The notes beneath the pieces were generated by a model. The model was not told the DNA's origin. It did no database searches and worked only from the letters and a program-made list of their open reading frames with translations. The translations under genes were made by a program, and so were the position numbers. A DNA stretch of 53,356 nt from a virus (Duplodnaviria; Caudoviricetes), in the IMG/VR virus record IMGVR_UViG_3300036861_000789, positions 1 through 53,356 of that record; one strand, given 5' to 3'. Every line of letters starts with the position of its first letter. The stretch's first letter is position 1. Shown one piece after another: positions 8,770 through 15,865 of this stretch.

Positions 8770-8837
8770 CGTTCTTGTCAGTCAGGGCGATCCAAAGGTC
8801 TCCCCAGGTCTTCCCTGGAAAGCCCTGGCTGATATGA

Positions 8838-8910
8838 CGGGTAGTGGGTCCAAGGTGGGCCGCCTGGTTTGGGACCAGGACATTGGCAAGTTCGATTCTT
8901 GTCTACCCGA
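8838..8910 (+). tRNA. tRNA-Pro(TGG)
   Basis: CGGGTAG/CTACCCG; CCTGG-TTTGGGA-CCAGG; GTTCGATTC. Confidence 0.9.
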
Positions 8911-8979
8911 CGCGGAGGAGTCCTGCCCAGGGGATGGGCAGGGGTGAGCCGGGCATGCACTCCCGGGCTCCGATGCCAT

Positions 8980-9050
8980 AGCGGGTGTAGTGGAGTAGTA
9001 CCACGTCGGGCTCATAATCCGAAGGGGCCGTGCAAATCGGACACCCGCTA
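8980..9050 (+). tRNA. tRNA-Met(CAT), initiator-like, atypical
   Basis: AGCGGGTG/CACCCGCT; TCGGG-CTCATAA-TCCGA; T-loop TGCAAAT with short T stem. Confidence 0.7.
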
Positions 9051-9058
9051 CTTAGCAA

Positions 9059-9126
9059 GGGGTTAGTGCAGGGCACAGCTGATCTTTGCAAGATCGGCCC
9101 GCAGAGTTCGATTCTCTGTGACTCCA
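9059..9126 (+). tRNA. tRNA-Ala(TGC), atypical D-arm
   Basis: GGGGTTA/TGACTCC with G3:U70 and A73; GATC-TTTGCAA-GATC; GTTCGATTC. Confidence 0.7.
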
Positions 9127-9173
9127 CGGAAGCCAGGATCAAATCTTCCACGGGTAGGATCCTGGCTCCCCAA

Positions 9174-9247
9174 CTCCATATAGCTCAGTCGGATAGAGCG
9201 CCGGGCTACGAACTCGGAGGCCGCAGGTTCGAATCCTGCTTTGGAGA
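9174..9247 (+). tRNA. tRNA-Arg(ACG)
   Basis: TAGCTCAGTCGGATAGAGC; CCGGG-CTACGAA-CTCGG; GGTTCGAATCC. Confidence 0.92.
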
Positions 9248-9376
9248 CGGGTAAATGCCTAGTCATTGCGCTGGAGCCAGATTGCAAGCTGGTTTCAGCA
9301 GCACCGACCGCCACTCAACTGGCCTAAGGTGTTGCGGGGTTGAGACCGCGCGATGATGATCCCATGACAACTGAAT

Positions 9377-9448
9377 GGTCCCATTGTGTATTGGTTAGCA
9401 TCTCGGTTTTTCACACCGGGGGACAGAGTTCGATTCTCTGTGGGACTA
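9377..9448 (+). tRNA. tRNA-Glu(TTC)
   Basis: GGTCCCA/TGGGACT; TCGGT-TTTTCAC-ACCGG. Confidence 0.88.
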
Positions 9449-9507
9449 CGTTCGAAGATCATGCTCTGGCCTGAGGGGTAGCCAGGGGTCCCCATGATCT
9501 TCGACAA

Positions 9508-9581
9508 GCCCTCGTAGCCTAATTGGTAGCGGCGTCTGATTTAGGATCAGAAGGTTGGGAGTTCGAATCTCTCCGGGGGTA
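9508..9581 (+). tRNA. tRNA-Leu(TAG), short variable region
   Basis: GCCCTCG/CGGGGGT; TCTGA-TTTAGGA-TCAGA. Confidence 0.9.
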
Positions 9582-9665
9582 CGGTGACATCGAAGTGCAC
9601 TTCGGAACGAGACTGGAATAGGAGACTTCAGACTCGGCCGGTCCCTCCAACTGGGTCGCCAACTA

Positions 9666-9737
9666 GCACTCTTAGCTCAGCGGCAGAGCGGCATCCTCAC
9701 ACGATGCTACGCGAAGGTTCGAGTCCTTCAGGGTGTA
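9666..9737 (+). tRNA. tRNA-Val(CAC)
   Basis: GCACTCT/AGGGTGT; GCATC-CTCACAC-GATGC. Confidence 0.92.
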
Positions 9738-9850
9738 CGGGAAGCCAGGAACCTGTGGTACCGCAGCGGACTGGGCGAAGACCTCCATCGTCCCGATGGC
9801 TGGATAGCGCGAAGACGAGGGAGCACGCCTTCCCACCTACAACTTCACAT

Positions 9851-9921
9851 ATCCCAGTGGTGCAGTGGAAGCACAACTGCCTCCAAAACAGTTGACCGGG
9901 GTCCGATTCCTCGCTGGGGTG
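9851..9921 (+). tRNA. tRNA-Trp(CCA)
   Basis: ATCCCAG/CTGGGGT; ACTGC-CTCCAAA-ACAGT; T-loop TCCGATT. Confidence 0.82.
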
Positions 9922-9937
9922 CGCAACACAATTGAAT

Positions 9938-10013
9938 GCCCTTGTAGCTTAGTCAGGTCTAAAGCGCCTGGTCGTCAACCAGGAGAGCGCGGGTTCAAAT
10001 CCCACCATGGGCG
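9938..10013 (+). tRNA. tRNA-Asp(GTC), C33 variant
   Basis: CCTGG-TCGTCAA-CCAGG; GGTTCAAATCC; G73. Confidence 0.85.
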
Positions 10014-10050
10014 CGCAGTCGTAAGGTCCCCTCACGAGGGGTACACATAT

Positions 10051-13554: not shown

Positions 13555-13599
13555 CGATGGGGGTGGGCTACGACTCGCATCCCCACCCATCCCCGTCTT

Positions 13600-13673
13600 G
13601 CCCTTATAGCTCAGTCAGGTAGAGCACTTCCTTGGTACGGAAGAGGTCCGGAGTTCGACTCTCCGCTGGGGCT
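13600..13673 (+). tRNA. tRNA-Thr(GGT)
   Basis: TAGCTCAGTCAGGTAGAGC; CTTCC-TTGGTAC-GGAAG. Confidence 0.9.
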
Positions 13674-13773
13674 CGAACGAATGCGACGTCAGTGAAGTAC
13701 AAGCTGATAAAGACGCATTGGCCCATGACGTCAGGGCGGTTTTTACCGGCTTTCCTTAAAAAAGCCGGGGTAA

Positions 13774-13846
13774 GTCCTTGTAGCCCAACGGATACGGCGT
13801 CCCGCTTCTAACGGGAGGAATGCAGGTTCGAATCCTGCCGAGGACA
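13774..13846 (+). tRNA. tRNA-Arg(TCT)
   Basis: GTCCTTG/CGAGGAC; TCCCG-CTTCTAA-CGGGA. Confidence 0.92.
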
Positions 13847-13944
13847 CTATGTGGCCGACGCACCGCAAGTTCAGCAGGCATAAGTGATGTTGGTACACCT
13901 GCTGTCAAGCTCCCCGATCCAACTAGGGCGGCATGCGTCTTCAA

Positions 13945-14016
13945 GCCTTTGAAGCTCAACGGATGAGCACACCCCTCCTAAGGGTGCGGATGAGGGTTCG
14001 ACTCCTTCCAGGGGCA
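13945..14016 (+). tRNA. tRNA-Arg(CCT)
   Basis: GCCTTTG/CAGGGGC; CACCC-CTCCTAA-GGGTG. Confidence 0.88.
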
Positions 14017-14143
14017 CTGCGGCGCTGTCCTCGCCGGGGCCTTCAGCCCCAGACTAGACAGCAGCGCGGGGTGGCGTATGGTGCCGCAGGAGATCTGCGG
14101 CCTTGCTTGTTATTGCGACATGAAACAAAGCCACCCCAACCTT

Positions 14144-14216
14144 TCCCTCATGGGCCAGCGGACAGGCCGTCAGTCTCCGAAGCTGAAAATCGCAGGTTCG
14201 AATCCTGCTGGGGGAA
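14144..14216 (+). tRNA. tRNA-Arg(CCG)
   Basis: TCCCTCA/TGGGGGA; TCAGT-CTCCGAA-GCTGA. Confidence 0.9.
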
Positions 14217-14230
14217 CGCAGCACCTTTAA

Positions 14231-14302
14231 GCCCCTGTAGCTCAGAGGCAGAGCAACCGACTCTTAATCGGTGGGCCGGGATTTCGAAATTCCCTGGGGG
14301 CA
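14231..14302 (+). tRNA. tRNA-Lys(CTT)
   Basis: GCCCCTG/TGGGGGC; ACCGA-CTCTTAA-TCGGT; T-arm GGGAT-TTCGAAA-TTCCC. Confidence 0.9.
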
Positions 14303-14330
14303 CTTCTCCGAAGAATGGGAAAGGAGAAGC

Positions 14331-14441
14331 ATGAAAGCTGTTCTCGTTCTGGGAATGGCCGGATTGATCCTAGCGGGGTTGTATCTCCTTTTTGGAGCCA
14401 TAACCCCCATAGTCAGAAGCTGGTGGAGAAAAAGCAAATGA
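14331..14441 (+). CDS. 36-aa single-TM peptide
   Basis: RBS AAAGGAG; MKAVLVLGMAGLILAGLYLLFGAITPIVRSWWRKSK; ATGA-coupled to next gene. Confidence 0.7.
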   Translation: MKAVLVLGMAGLILAGLYLLFGAITPIVRSWWRKSK

Positions 14442-15397
14442 AGCTCTCTCGGATTACGGGAGGGCTCACCGCAGTCCTCCTCCTGTCAGCAGTCCTCACC
14501 GGCTGCTCCAGCACCACCGAACCCGATCAGGTTGGCCTGTACTACAAGCAGGGCAGCTCGGACGGCAACCAGTTCGACCACTGCACGGAGCCGTCGAAGA
14601 CCGATGACTTCGAGTGGAACAACGACATCATCTACCTGCCGACTTCGCTGCGGACATGGAACATCGCTGGCGACGGTGGGGATCAGACTGAACCGATCAC
14701 AGTCTCATCCAAGCCTCAGGACGGGCAGCCTTCCGGAGTGCCGGTAAATGTCTGGTCGCAGACGAACATGGTGCTCAACACCTTCTGCGACAAGAACGGT
14801 GGGGTGGTGAAGTCGTTCTGGGAGACGATCGGCCGACGTTACAAAGCTGACACCGAGGATGGCTGGAAAGCCATGATGAAGGTGACAGTTGTTCCAGCGC
14901 TGGAGAAGGCAACTCGCAATGTGGTGCGCGGCTATTTGGCCGATGATCTGGTCGCCAACAAAGACGGTGTTCACATCAAAGTTCAAGAGGCCATCGCCGT
15001 AGAGTTTTCGGTGGAGTTGGAGCGCCTGTCGGGTGGAAAGTTCTTCTGCGGCCCAGTGTTCAACCGGGCCAAGCCGGACTGCCCATCGGTCCAGTTGATC
15101 GTCAAGGACATCGACTACAATGATCCAGGCATCCAGGCGGCTCGCAACGAGAAGCAGAAAGCCATCGAGCAGGCTGCGGCGAACAAGGCCAGAGCTGAAG
15201 GCGATGCTGCTGCTCTACTCGCTGCGGCTCAAGGTCAGGTGGATGCGGCGAACAAGATTGCCCAGCTGTACAAGAACCCCGCCTGGGTGGCTTTGAAGAA
15301 GGCCGAGATCCAACTTCAGATCGCCCAGTCATGCGGACAGAACCCCAACTGCCGCATGATCATGGGGGCTGACGGGAACATCATCATCCAACCGTAA
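14438..15397 (+). CDS. SPFH/Band-7-like lipoprotein
   Basis: Lipobox LTGC; EPDQVGLYY, ITVSSK, ALEKATRNVV; C-terminal Ala-rich coiled coil. Confidence 0.75.
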   Translation: MKLSRITGGLTAVLLLSAVLTGCSSTTEPDQVGLYYKQGSSDGNQFDHCTEPSKTDDFEWNNDIIYLPTSLRTWNIAGDGGDQTEPITVSSKPQDGQPSGVPVNVWSQTNMVLNTFCDKNGGVVKSFWETIGRRYKADTEDGWKAMMKVTVVPALEKATRNVVRGYLADDLVANKDGVHIKVQEAIAVEFSVELERLSGGKFFCGPVFNRAKPDCPSVQLIVKDIDYNDPGIQAARNEKQKAIEQAAANKARAEGDAAALLAAAQGQVDAANKIAQLYKNPAWVALKKAEIQLQIAQSCGQNPNCRMIMGADGNIIIQP

Positions 15398-15573
15398 GGG
15401 ATCTGCGGGGATGGGAGTTGGCGCTCTCGTCCTCGCCCGCCCATCTTTGCCCGAGTGGGTTGGTTTGCAGCCTGTGCCCTAACGTCCGGGAGCACGGCAG
15501 GGTCAGGTAGTTGAGCACCCTTGGAAGGGGTCCCGGGTGTGCTCACGTCTATACCTGACCTATCGGGCTTTAC

Positions 15574-15645
15574 GCGGTTGAGATGTTACGGCAGCATACC
15601 CGGCCTCCACCCGGGGTGAGTCAGGTTCAATTCCTGCCGACCGCA
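15574..15645 (+). tRNA. tRNA-Gly(TCC), C33 variant
   Basis: GCGGTTG/CGACCGC; CCCGG-CCTCCAC-CCGGG. Confidence 0.8.
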
Positions 15646-15721
15646 CGCAAATGACAGGGTGGCAGCCTGGGAAGCTCGCCATGTAAGCAACGCGGAATCC
15701 TCAACTCGTGCCCTGCCCCAA

Positions 15722-15792
15722 GTGGATGAAGTGTTAAGGCAGCACCCCACCTTGCCATGGTGGTAGTCAGGGTTCGATTCCCTGTATCCGCA
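15722..15792 (+). tRNA. tRNA-Gly(GCC)
   Basis: GTGGATG/TATCCGC; CCACC-TTGCCAT-GGTGG. Confidence 0.88.
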
Positions 15793-15865
15793 CTGCGCTC
15801 AGCGGCGCAAAGTTCGCAGGTCCCATTCCTTAGGTGGGACCTGCGAACACAGCAGCATAAAGTTT

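Follow-up and report, generated by a model that had tools for sequence, protein, structure and literature searches.

The tRNA array and its predicted transcription signals

The window analysed here, a 53,356-nt record of a caudoviricete soil phage (IMGVR_UViG_3300036861_000789), has 32 tRNA genes by ARAGORN, every one on the + strand; 31 of them form an array at 8838..16241 (Rfam concurs on 30 of these 31). Three genes interrupt the array: HNH at 10659-11102, DUF7873 at 12136-12888 and SPFH/lipoprotein at 14438-15397. A gene for a RusA-like resolvase is found directly upstream. CCA is encoded by 2/31 of the array tRNAs, the discriminator is directly followed by C in 28/31, and the tRNA leaders are short and G-poor at positions -1 to -3. 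The phage host is probably an actinobacterium.

A promoter-like site (TTGACA-N19-TAGAGT) lies on the + strand at 8739..8769 and would start transcription at about 8776-8778. It is the sole TTGNNN-N16-19-TAGRRT in the array or just before it and is kept in a syntenic relative (L024); TTGACA-N15-20-TANNNT itself was matched four times against 0.56 expected. A U-tailed intrinsic terminator (AAAAGCCCCCAGG...CTGGGGGCTTTTC), read directly from the sequence and a folding outlier on both strands, occupies 18195..18225 and most likely ends the array's transcription unit. Judged from these motifs, the single promoter and single U-tailed terminator would frame the array as one unit, and we infer that it is transcribed as such.

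Downstream of the DUF7873 gene is a YrlA-like, circularly permuted tRNA mimic (13031..13138, + strand), which was not among the spacers named in an earlier note on this DNA. It adopts a four-way fold with two two-sided changes relative to L024, and a purpose-built model places a YrlA-like RNA behind DUF7873 in 41/100 loci, with strong covariation. The element shares with YrlA Y RNAs (RF02553; PMC4201824) a layout of outer stem, T-like arm, acceptor-like hairpin and D-like arm; it differs from them in scoring below the Rfam threshold (28.3 bits against YrlA, gathering score 69) and in sitting behind a DUF7873 gene, and the record that carries it holds no Ro60 gene.

Array spacers mostly fold into stable RNA hairpins kept by evolution

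Twenty-three non-coding segments, 39 to 223 nt long, were folded, each against 300 dinucleotide shuffles: 21 inter-tRNA spacers, the 5' leader and the 176-nt stretch ahead of tRNA-Gly. The earlier note had described most inter-tRNA spacers as self-closed RNA domains and quoted six complementary stem pairs (8778-8832, 9452-9504, 11162-11222, 11566-11628, 14068-14137 and 15449-15568), all of which are present in the minimum free energy folds, the 9452/9493 pair being recovered separately. Folding energies beat the shuffles, as that note had proposed checking, with a mean z of -2.97 over the 23 segments, z < -2 in 16/23 and z < -3 in 14/23, whereas 69 size-matched sense-strand coding windows from the same record have a mean z of -0.34, and of these 7% fall below -2 but not one below -3. 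In 18/23 segments the + strand folds more stably than the - strand; it is tied in one and weaker in four. Significant structure was not found in 7/23 segments (8912-8979, 9583-9665, 9739-9850, 10015-10078, 13848-13944, 15647-15721 and 15946-16168).

The structural observation is thus confirmed; end-to-end closure, however, extends to only about half of the spacers. When a closed spacer is defined by an outer helix of at least 5 bp over at least 80% of spacer length, 11/21 are closed (2.75 expected from shuffles), and the remainder form two or three tandem hairpins or are unstructured. Paired bases make up 62% of the spacers, no unpaired run exceeds 17 nt, and a C/G ratio above 1.5 is reached in 2.3% of 78-nt windows versus 12.4% in the structural genes. 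Structure begins a median of 1 nt past the discriminator and stops a median of 4 nt short of the next tRNA (15 against 4, p 0.02), an asymmetry that does not reach significance in L024 (9 against 6). Six unrelated phage arrays have the same tendency in weaker form (z < -2 in 17/54 spacers). The spacers are mutually unrelated, as had been stated (blastn-short among 26 segments returned only 13-15-nt matches), and their reported want of U-tails largely holds, terminator-like sites being no more numerous than in shuffles (11 vs 11.7), apart from T-rich tails seen at 14083-14111 and within 13675-13773.

Fourteen segments could be aligned with L024; as L037 and L024 are almost the same, the comparison covers two lineages. 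On the + strand, 61/91 changed base pairs in these segments still pair, 19 of them through two-sided changes, whereas slid controls keep 0.33-0.39 of changed pairs with 3-6 two-sided changes. When the segments' changes are instead read as - strand, 23/68 pairs are kept (Fisher p 5e-5 vs + strand); the reciprocal test keeps 53/94 (p 0.006). Such compensatory change, the covariation check suggested in the earlier note, shows that the spacer folds are under selection as + strand RNA. The alignable spacers differ at 0.155 of paired and 0.164 of unpaired positions versus 0.36-0.40 at four-fold sites of neighbouring genes, figures with an ascertainment bias, in that spacers without an alignment are not counted; since the two spacer values are similar and both lie below the four-fold sites, loops look as constrained as stems.

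The individual folds, all on the + strand, begin with a 5' leader hairpin at the putative transcript start (8778..8837; stem TCAGTCAGGGC / GCCCTGGCTGA; z -4.45), in which 12 pairs are unchanged in L024, three are kept by one-sided and one by two-sided change, none is broken and four are gapped. The Glu-Leu spacer (9450..9507; 12-bp closing stem; z -3.39) is identical at 49/58 positions and includes one C-G to U-A exchange, and the three tandem domains of the Gln-Leu spacer (10229..10390; z -5.57) keep seven pairs through two-sided changes. In the Asn-Phe spacer (11161..11226; 14-bp closing stem; z -4.23), four one-sided wobble changes break no pair and a 22-nt loop segment is identical; of the two Phe-Thr hairpins (11300..11412; z -3.55), the second combines an identical 19-nt loop with a stem altered by wobble. 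The stem of the His-Thr spacer (13556..13599; 12-bp closing stem; z -3.87) is kept (three one-sided changes, one two-sided, one broken) and its loop is freely replaced. The spacer after tRNA(CAT) (11566..11631; 11-bp closing stem; z -2.23) has its homologue at 3727-3793 of L024, with 51/66 identical positions and, among changed pairs, five kept and one broken. The three small hairpins of the Thr-Arg spacer (13675..13773; z -2.22) lie in sequence identical at 87/101 positions, and the 14-bp hairpin after tRNA(ATG) (13241..13279; z -4.14) is identical at 38/39 and is followed in L024 by an extra tRNA. The two-domain Arg-Arg spacer (14018..14143; including GGGGTGGC / GCCACCCC; z -3.78) has seven changed pairs kept, three broken and 11 gapped; the 176-nt structured segment from the SPFH gene to tRNA-Gly (15398..15573; GCCCGA / TCGGGC with inner GGTCAGGTA / TACCTGACC; z -4.05) has 148 identities, with six changed pairs kept and eight broken; and the closed hairpin of the Ala-Arg spacer (9128..9173; z -3.89) is only partly kept (two kept, four broken).

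Between the window and L024, spacers are also gained and lost as whole units, and three window spacers are absent from the relative, with 9-23-nt linkers in their place. The branched Arg-Glu spacer (9249..9376; z -3.18) is missing and a 19-nt linker stands there instead. Elsewhere, a deletion in L024 removed the two-domain Ala-Ile spacer (11705..11840; z -3.76), and the Gly-Tyr spacer (15794..15865; 14-16-bp hairpin; z -6.79) is without a counterpart in L024, where these tRNAs are missing. At the position of the 16-bp Val/Ser hairpin (13353..13396; z -6.57), L024 has a 113-nt stem-closed segment whose 5' half is tRNA-like.

Possible roles of the spacers

On balance, and with moderate confidence, we lean towards reading the spacers as cis-acting, self-sequestering parts of one polycistronic pre-tRNA. 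A long, mostly untranslated transcript from the promoter to the terminator near 18225 would carry the 31 tRNAs, and its long spacers would pair with themselves from about 1-2 nt past the discriminator (where C usually follows) until some 4 nt short of the next tRNA. Such pairing would keep GC-rich spacer RNA from mispairing with adjacent tRNAs, expose only short, G-poor single-stranded linkers to RNase P and an endonuclease (RNase Z or RNase E), offer Rho and exonucleases no long unstructured C-rich stretch and cap the 5' end of the primary transcript with a hairpin; free hairpins would be released, probably as by-products. In silico, the mean acceptor-stem probability falls from 0.87 for tRNAs folded alone to 0.48 once native flanks are added and to 0.27 when the flanks are shuffled; native flanks beat shuffled ones for 20/30 tRNAs (Wilcoxon p 0.003) and do no better for 10/30. 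This lends direct computational support to what the earlier note had offered as its alternative, that the stems insulate tRNA folding. Long spacers are not required for processing, since many tRNA pairs within the array and three positions in L024 manage with linkers of 1-23 nt; the cis-acting reading accounts for the spacers having to fold, not for their existence.

Bacterial polycistronic pre-tRNAs such as those of the E. coli val/lys and argX-hisR-leuT-proM operons are separated by RNase P and RNase E, as excerpts of two studies describe (PMC4176162, PMC9841416), and an adjacent tRNA or simple stem-loop stimulates RNase E cutting of the linkers (excerpt of PMC9841416). The operons resemble the array in their tandem tRNAs on one transcript, their short single-stranded linkers at tRNA ends and the promotion of linker cleavage by a neighbouring structured unit. 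Unlike them, the array has 21 spacers of 39-223 nt, described as each having its own stable fold, maintained by compensatory change, with few CCA-encoding tRNAs and a probable actinobacterial host.

The freed hairpins might instead work as small RNAs in their own right (decoys, aptamers or antisense RNAs), the tRNA array serving as their expression and processing platform, a reading that we consider possible, if rather unlikely. The release of structured RNAs by tRNA processing, as the earlier note had proposed, is plausible given the single promoter and terminator and the features of the tRNA ends: because leaders are short and G-poor and C follows the discriminator, cuts by RNase P and RNase Z would free near-blunt hairpins, which should be poor nuclease targets. 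The Asn-Phe and Phe-Thr loops that stay identical while their stems change favour functional small RNAs and count against the cis-acting reading, as does the conservation of unpaired positions, which is close to that of paired ones and above that of four-fold sites; the 7/23 unstructured segments also count against the latter, and the presence and absence of hairpins between relatives is like that of accessory genes. Tempering this, conservation does not extend to the His-Thr loop, L024 does without three of the hairpins, and many hairpins are plain perfect stems with 6-9-nt loops, poor candidates for aptamers. tRNA-processing enzymes do free adjoining hairpin RNAs in the MHV68 tRNA-pre-miRNA, MALAT1-mascRNA and engineered tRNA-gRNA systems, which are eukaryotic or engineered; the RNAs that the known examples release have proven functions, whereas the spacer hairpins are putative released RNAs only. 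In phage T4, RNAC and RNAD lie within the tRNA cluster. They are 'RNAs of yet unknown functions' in an excerpt of PMC9697503 and, like the spacers, are structured non-tRNA RNAs co-encoded with phage tRNAs, a likeness of layout, not expected to extend to sequence, between two defined RNAs of ~120-140 nt and more than a dozen unrelated hairpins exactly filling gaps. The large RNAs GOLLD and ROOL occur near phage tRNA islands (excerpt of PMC12286853) and, with YrlA, illustrate that phage tRNA arrays can host other structured RNAs. The view of the array as a polycistronic non-coding RNA platform gains from the YrlA-like mimic, another non-tRNA RNA held within it; decoy or aptamer action, however, found no support, in that the spacers matched no Rfam family at E <= 1 (the spacer hairpins belong to none of the YrlA, GOLLD and ROOL families), no complement or second copy of a spacer occurs in the record or in 107 loci, and the one exact 22-nt match among 185,579 genomes, a chance hit, falls within coding sequence of an unrelated MAG.

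It is improbable that the spacers lack any positive role and are evolutionary leftovers (scars of lost tRNA genes, captured flanks or former terminators) that persist only in harmless self-folding forms. The array is a mosaic, its tRNAs being 57 to 100% identical to those of L024, which carries a truncated tRNA-Ala remnant and the stem-closed tRNA-like fragment where the window differs, and spacers appear and vanish as units and are lineage-specific (107 loci compared). No window spacer scores as a tRNA at E <= 1, however, the 11-16-bp stems do not correspond to acceptor stems, and the spacers are conserved above synonymous sites. In practice leftovers overlap with cis-acting spacers, because both readings invoke selection for non-interference.

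Action of the palindromes as DNA, in cruciforms or single-strand hairpins for tRNA-cassette exchange (like integron attC) or nuclease guidance, seems very improbable. The cassette-like gain and loss of tRNAs with spacers, the HNH endonuclease gene inside the array and the RusA-like resolvase gene just upstream would fit it, but G-U pairs are preserved on the + strand and pairs broken on the - strand, the + strand fold is the stabler in most segments, and a scan of 63 ORFs turned up no integrase. The attC core motif, in what we take to be its usual form, bounds no closed hairpin (4 + 3 hits elsewhere; 2 + 2 in a 36-kb control).

For actinobacteria, hairpin terminators lacking U-tails have been proposed, though this is disputed. 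A role for the hairpins in terminating or attenuating transcription, or as self-cleaving ribozymes making tRNA 3' ends, is scarcely credible despite that proposal and their position directly after CCA-less tRNAs, which recalls the theta (minimal HDV-like) ribozymes that adjoin phage tRNA 3' ends, mainly in gut phages of Bacteroidota, and suggest an alternative 3' maturation route (excerpt of PMC10879173): terminator-like sites are no commoner than in shuffles, the clear terminators of this phage have U-tails, no ribozyme family is found among the spacers at E <= 1 (Rfam), several spacers are perfect 14-16-bp stems too small for a catalytic core, and, unlike theta ribozymes, the spacers lack an HDV-like nested pseudoknot, a loose descriptor fitting 3/31 tRNA ends only by extending into the next tRNA (control 7/300).

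Returning to the cis-acting reading, the most likely meaning of the self-folding spacers is that they would let one very long tRNA precursor fold and be cut cleanly.

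Folding of the spacers and selection on their structure

We folded 23 non-coding segments of the tRNA array (the leader, 21 inter-tRNA spacers of 39–223 nt and the 176 nt before tRNA-Gly, 15398–15573) and compared the fold energy of each with 300 dinucleotide-preserving shuffles. The mean z of these segments was −2.97, with z < −2 in 16 of the 23, z < −3 in 14 and a fold no better than chance in seven, against a mean z of −0.34 in 69 coding windows of matched size, taken from the sense strand of the same record, 7% of which fell below −2 and none below −3. The folding energies thus uphold the earlier note, which had proposed that the spacers form RNA domains, and all six stem pairs that it quoted occur in the minimum-energy folds. 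Its statement that most spacers are self-closed was a little generous: most are strongly structured, but closure (an outer helix of at least 5 bp over at least 80% of the spacer) is found in 11 of the 21 spacers (2.75 expected from shuffles), the others being tandem hairpins or unstructured. Paired positions make up 62% of spacer bases, and unpaired runs within a spacer reach 17 nt at most. Pairing starts a median of 1 nt past the discriminator and ends a median of 4 nt ahead of the next tRNA (15 vs. 4, sign test p 0.02), an asymmetry that is not significant in L024, a syntenic relative from a metagenome (9 vs. 6). A crude 60-nt sliding scan, which placed 8 of 22 + strand outliers within the array, contributed little because of its low resolution.

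In L024, spacers with a length of 35 nt or more have a mean z of −2.46 (< −2 in 8 of 16). Weaker values, with array means of −1.1 to −2.1 and 17 of 54 spacers below −2, were obtained for six unrelated arrays (Mycobacterium phage ScoobyDoobyDoo, Gordonia phage Boopy, Streptomyces phage Alone3, Klebsiella phage FZ41 and two IMG/VR contigs), so that the folding tendency appears to be widespread and the array of the window an extreme case of it. Our literature search found no paper on array-wide self-folding spacers in phage tRNA arrays.

L024 was found by a metagenome scan with the DUF7873 protein (82% protein identity), together with a nearly identical sequence, L037. Scans of IMG/VR with the DUF7873 and SPFH proteins yielded no syntenic array and no relative more than 59% identical, and an exact search with a 24-nt tRNA-Asn pattern matched no viral contig; because the metagenome scan alone yielded syntenic relatives, and these two are nearly identical, spacer covariation rests on two lineages. 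The public sequencing runs listed as containing the stretch include no RNA run; two are soil DNA runs, one of which may be the source of this DNA, and their contigs offered no informative spacer variants. The order of the tRNAs is largely shared between L024 and the window, at tRNA identities of 57–100%.

Fourteen segments could be aligned with L024, the fold of the window serving as reference. Of the pairs in that fold, 260 are unchanged in L024, 42 are kept with a one-sided and 19 with a two-sided change, 30 are broken and 39 contain gaps. Compensatory change is therefore present between the two lineages, with 61 of 91 changed pairs kept (0.67), compared with 0.33–0.39 (and only 3–6 two-sided changes) when the partner was slid by 1–2 positions. 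When read on the − strand, the identical changes preserve pairing in 23 of 68 cases (Fisher p 5e-5); with the fold of L024 read in the window, as the reciprocal test, 53 of 94 are kept (15 two-sided, p 0.006). Of the 23 folded segments, 18 are more stable as the + strand RNA. In the two lineages compared, this pattern is the signature of an RNA made from the tRNA strand. The spacers are a real, selected RNA feature. The idea that two hairpins move with their upstream tRNA was dropped, one of the two cases being a downstream deletion in L024.

The tRNA genes and their putative transcription unit

The record is linear, with 53,356 bases, a GC content of ~0.59 and a CheckV completeness of 89%, and encodes a terminase, a portal, a Mu-F-like protein, a D5-type primase-helicase, endonuclease VII and a RusA-like resolvase; on the − strand, the ORF at 18780–19061 has a domain resembling Tad2 (Thoeris anti-defence 2; E 2e-20). 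Megablast found no match of the array among 50,697 phage records, and in a distant-mode search the sole DNA similarities of the record were its tRNAs and the DUF7873 gene, which are common to phages of Gordonia, Arthrobacter, Streptomyces and Mycobacterium. We read the record as a soil actinophage, with a host that we infer.

The 32 tRNA genes called by ARAGORN all lie on the + strand; 31 fall within 8838–16241, and Rfam supports 30 of these 31. CCA is encoded by only 2 of the 31, yet a C directly follows the discriminator in 28, and this lone C74 may serve as a signal for processing or for CCA repair. At −1 to −3 the leaders are poor in G, and their final base is mostly A or T. The motif AACTGAA(T), retained in L024, occurs at 9368–9376, 9930–9937 and 10058–10064. 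It immediately precedes the 5′ ends of the Glu and Asp tRNAs, is also present within the Asp-Gln spacer and may act as a signal in the leader or for cleavage.

Several members of the array are unusual. The 69-nt "tRNA-Ala(TGC)" at 9059–9127 has a tiny D arm (4 bp with a 3-nt loop) and was called by ARAGORN without a match to the Rfam tRNA model; its counterpart in L024 shows 91% identity, carries one two-sided change within the D stem and is weakly mascRNA-like by score. A class-II tRNA-like sequence at 12024–12108, without an ARAGORN call, reaches a sub-threshold 29.5 bits with the tRNA-Sec model and may be a tRNA-Ser(UGA), because its anticodon loop reads CUUGAAA; it is not homologous to the sequence at that place in L024, a truncated tRNA-Ala(GGC) remnant. 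At one syntenic tRNA the anticodon is ATG (His) in the window (13169–13240) and ATT (Asn) in L024 (4918–4989), both of which begin with an unmodified-looking and unusual A34. An HNH endonuclease gene inside the array (10659–11102), whose stop codon sits 15 nt within tRNA-Asn (11088–11160), is missing from L024 at that place.

A promoter-like site, TTGACA-N19-TAGAGT at 8739–8769, is conserved in L024 and is the only match to TTGNNN-N16-19-TAGRRT in or just upstream of the array; a tighter promoter pattern occurs 4 times in the record, where 0.56 occurrences would be expected. Transcription would start at ~8776–8778, the first base of the first hairpin, so that the primary transcript would open with a 5′ stem-loop. 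The next U-tailed terminator after this promoter lies at 18195–18225, and like the other clear terminators of the phage (38063–38110 and 52795–52833) it has A/T tracts. Taken together, the two motifs would delimit a unit of ~9.4 kb, and this evidence points to one putative transcription unit comprising the tRNAs and the HNH, DUF7873 and lipoprotein/SPFH genes. Rho prefers windows with C/G > 1.5, and such windows make up 2.3% of the unit vs. 12.4% in the structural genes.

The DUF7873 gene and its adjacent tRNA mimic

The DUF7873 gene (12136–12888) is the first part of a conserved two-part module (12136–13140). About 140 nt behind it, at 13031–13138, lies a circularly permuted tRNA-like RNA with the layout of YrlA, composed of an outer stem (AGUCGCAG/CUGCGACU), a T-like arm, an acceptor-like hairpin with UCCA in its loop and a D-like arm. 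Between the gene and this mimic runs a conserved rod (~12906–13012) with 6 two-sided changes. The cmscan alignment of 13031–13138 spans positions 1–114 of the YrlA model (RF02553), and the score, 28.3 bits (28–38 bits in relatives), falls below the Rfam gathering threshold of 69. The RNAalifold fold of the mimic has 37 pairs, 2 of them with two-sided changes.

We built a model from the window and L024 and searched 100 DUF7873 loci from phages and bacteria; it places a mimic on the + strand, ~170–500 nt behind the DUF7873 match, in 41 of them at E <= 1 (in 25 at E <= 0.01), and many of the others are too short to tell. Among 36 mimic sequences, in an alignment fitted to the model, 84.2% of cells are paired vs. 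57.9% when shuffled, two-sided changes occupy 324 vs. 105 cells and the covariation score is 0.665 vs. <=0.125 with a slid partner.

A YrlA RNA would be expected next to a gene for Ro60/Rsr, a TROVE-domain protein. No TROVE domain was found in the 63 ORFs of the record (which at 89% CheckV completeness may be incomplete) or in 50 ORFs that surround DUF7873 at 9 further loci, several of them bacterial-looking rather than viral. DUF7873 itself has no sequence relative in the PDB (best E 0.26) and no PHROG, NCBIfam or PADLOC family, and its name was not found in a literature search. Together, the DUF7873 gene and the tRNA mimic point to a Y-RNA-like system without Ro60.

A small hairpin of the CCCGG-CTTGA-CCGGG type follows the DUF7873 stop codon in both phages (12891–12911 in the window) and is repeated inside the Gln-Leu spacer of L024, the two copies of L024 lying at its positions 2812–2832 and 4642–4662; no other spacer element was seen at more than one place.

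Possible roles of the spacers in cis and in trans

The most economical reading, and in our judgment a somewhat probable one, is that the spacers act in cis, as part of the design of one long transcript with many tRNAs. When insulation was tested in silico, the seven acceptor-stem pairs had a mean pairing probability of 0.87 for the tRNA alone, falling to 0.48 with native and to 0.27 with shuffled flanks, the native flanks being better than the shuffled ones for 20 of 30 tRNAs (Wilcoxon p 0.003). An arbitrary spacer in this GC-rich RNA is therefore predicted often to invade the tRNA, and a self-pairing spacer to do so less. A long spacer that pairs with itself would be self-sequestering and would leave only short linkers for RNase P and the 3′ endonuclease; self-paired spacers would also give Rho and exonucleases no entry, the first hairpin would cap the 5′ end of the transcript and processing would then free near-blunt, presumably stable hairpins. 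In E. coli, RNase E uses an adjacent tRNA or a simple stem-loop for pre-tRNA linker cleavage (PMC9841416), and the host enzymes here may do likewise. Two findings argue against a necessary role of the spacers: three of them in the window (68, 128 and 83 nt) have only 23, 19 and 9 nt in their place in L024, and many neighboring tRNAs of the window are separated by only 1–15 nt.

The second reading, in which some hairpins have a function in trans once they are released, is live, unsupported and in our view unlikely. It is favored by constraint on unpaired positions: in the alignable spacers, 0.155 of paired and 0.164 of unpaired positions differ from L024, whereas four-fold degenerate sites of three neighboring genes differ at 0.36–0.40, which argues that the unpaired parts are constrained too, in a comparison biased by the omission of four spacers that are unalignable or absent in L024 and by a global alignment that favors identity. 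Loop stretches of 22 nt in the Asn-Phe spacer (11161–11226) and 19 nt in the Phe-Thr spacer (11300–11412) are identical in L024 while their stems drift by wobble. The Asp-Gln spacer is likewise conserved (57 of 64 positions identical in L024) though unstructured, and spacer conservation may therefore reflect signals other than a trans-acting fold. By blastn, no target or copy of any spacer was found in the record or in 107 fetched loci, save L024, L037 and one further match. That match is also the single exact occurrence of the 22-nt Asn-Phe loop in 185,579 genomes; it falls within a coding gene of an unrelated MAG, has no neighboring tRNA and was set aside as chance.

A broader version, in which the array is a dual-purpose platform, strikes us as equally doubtful. 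RNase P and RNase Z would cut the ~9.4-kb transcript into 31 tRNAs and at least a dozen different near-blunt, nuclease-resistant hairpins, of which those with conserved loops would target host RNases, RNA-binding proteins or defence sensors in trans, beside a DUF7873-linked tRNA mimic that would replace the Ro60–Y RNA pair. The conserved-loop candidates, judged by conservation beyond the synonymous rate, would be the Asn-Phe, Phe-Thr and Thr-Arg (13675–13773) spacers and the 176-nt element before tRNA-Gly.

Known RNA and DNA families were sought in the spacers and not found. At E <= 1, Rfam returned no family in the spacers and no ribozyme family across 5000–17500, the ribozymes considered being HDV-like (including theta), hammerhead, twister, pistol and hatchet, sought as a covariance model match or a nested double-pseudoknot with a catalytic C. 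A loose HDV-like descriptor, distinct from the published theta one, fits 3 of 31 tRNA ends, always with P2 inside the next tRNA, and 7 of 300 controls. Sites resembling intrinsic terminators (a GC-rich hairpin with a direct U-tract) number 11 against 11.7 in shuffles, with none at closed spacer hairpins; the clear terminators of the phage do have U-tracts, and the earlier note was largely correct that the spacers lack U-tails. It was also right that the spacers are unrelated to each other, similarity among them reaching no more than 13–15 nt, and the absence of a shared unit speaks against CRISPR-like or solitary-repeat RNAs. Within the listed spacers there is no tRNA-clan match at E <= 1 that would mark a tRNA or pseudo-tRNA, such matches lying outside them (12024–12108 in the window; 5031–5098 and 3794–3875 in L024). 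The attC sites of integrons are imperfect palindromes bounded by RYYYAAC and GTTRRRY, with an integrase nearby; pairs of this motif number 4 on the + and 3 on the − strand (2 + 2 in a 36-kb control) and match no closed hairpin, and a scan of the 63 ORFs found no integrase in the record.

Large tRNA arrays are common in phages, and the inter-tRNA DNA that annotation ignores is here under selection as RNA structure. If the spacers act in cis, they would exemplify a rule for the design of long untranslated transcripts with many tRNAs in GC-rich hosts, namely that every long spacer folds on itself, and would be a natural counterpart to engineered tRNA-spacer arrays; should some of them work in trans, then phage tRNA arrays would have been overlooked as a source of small RNAs.
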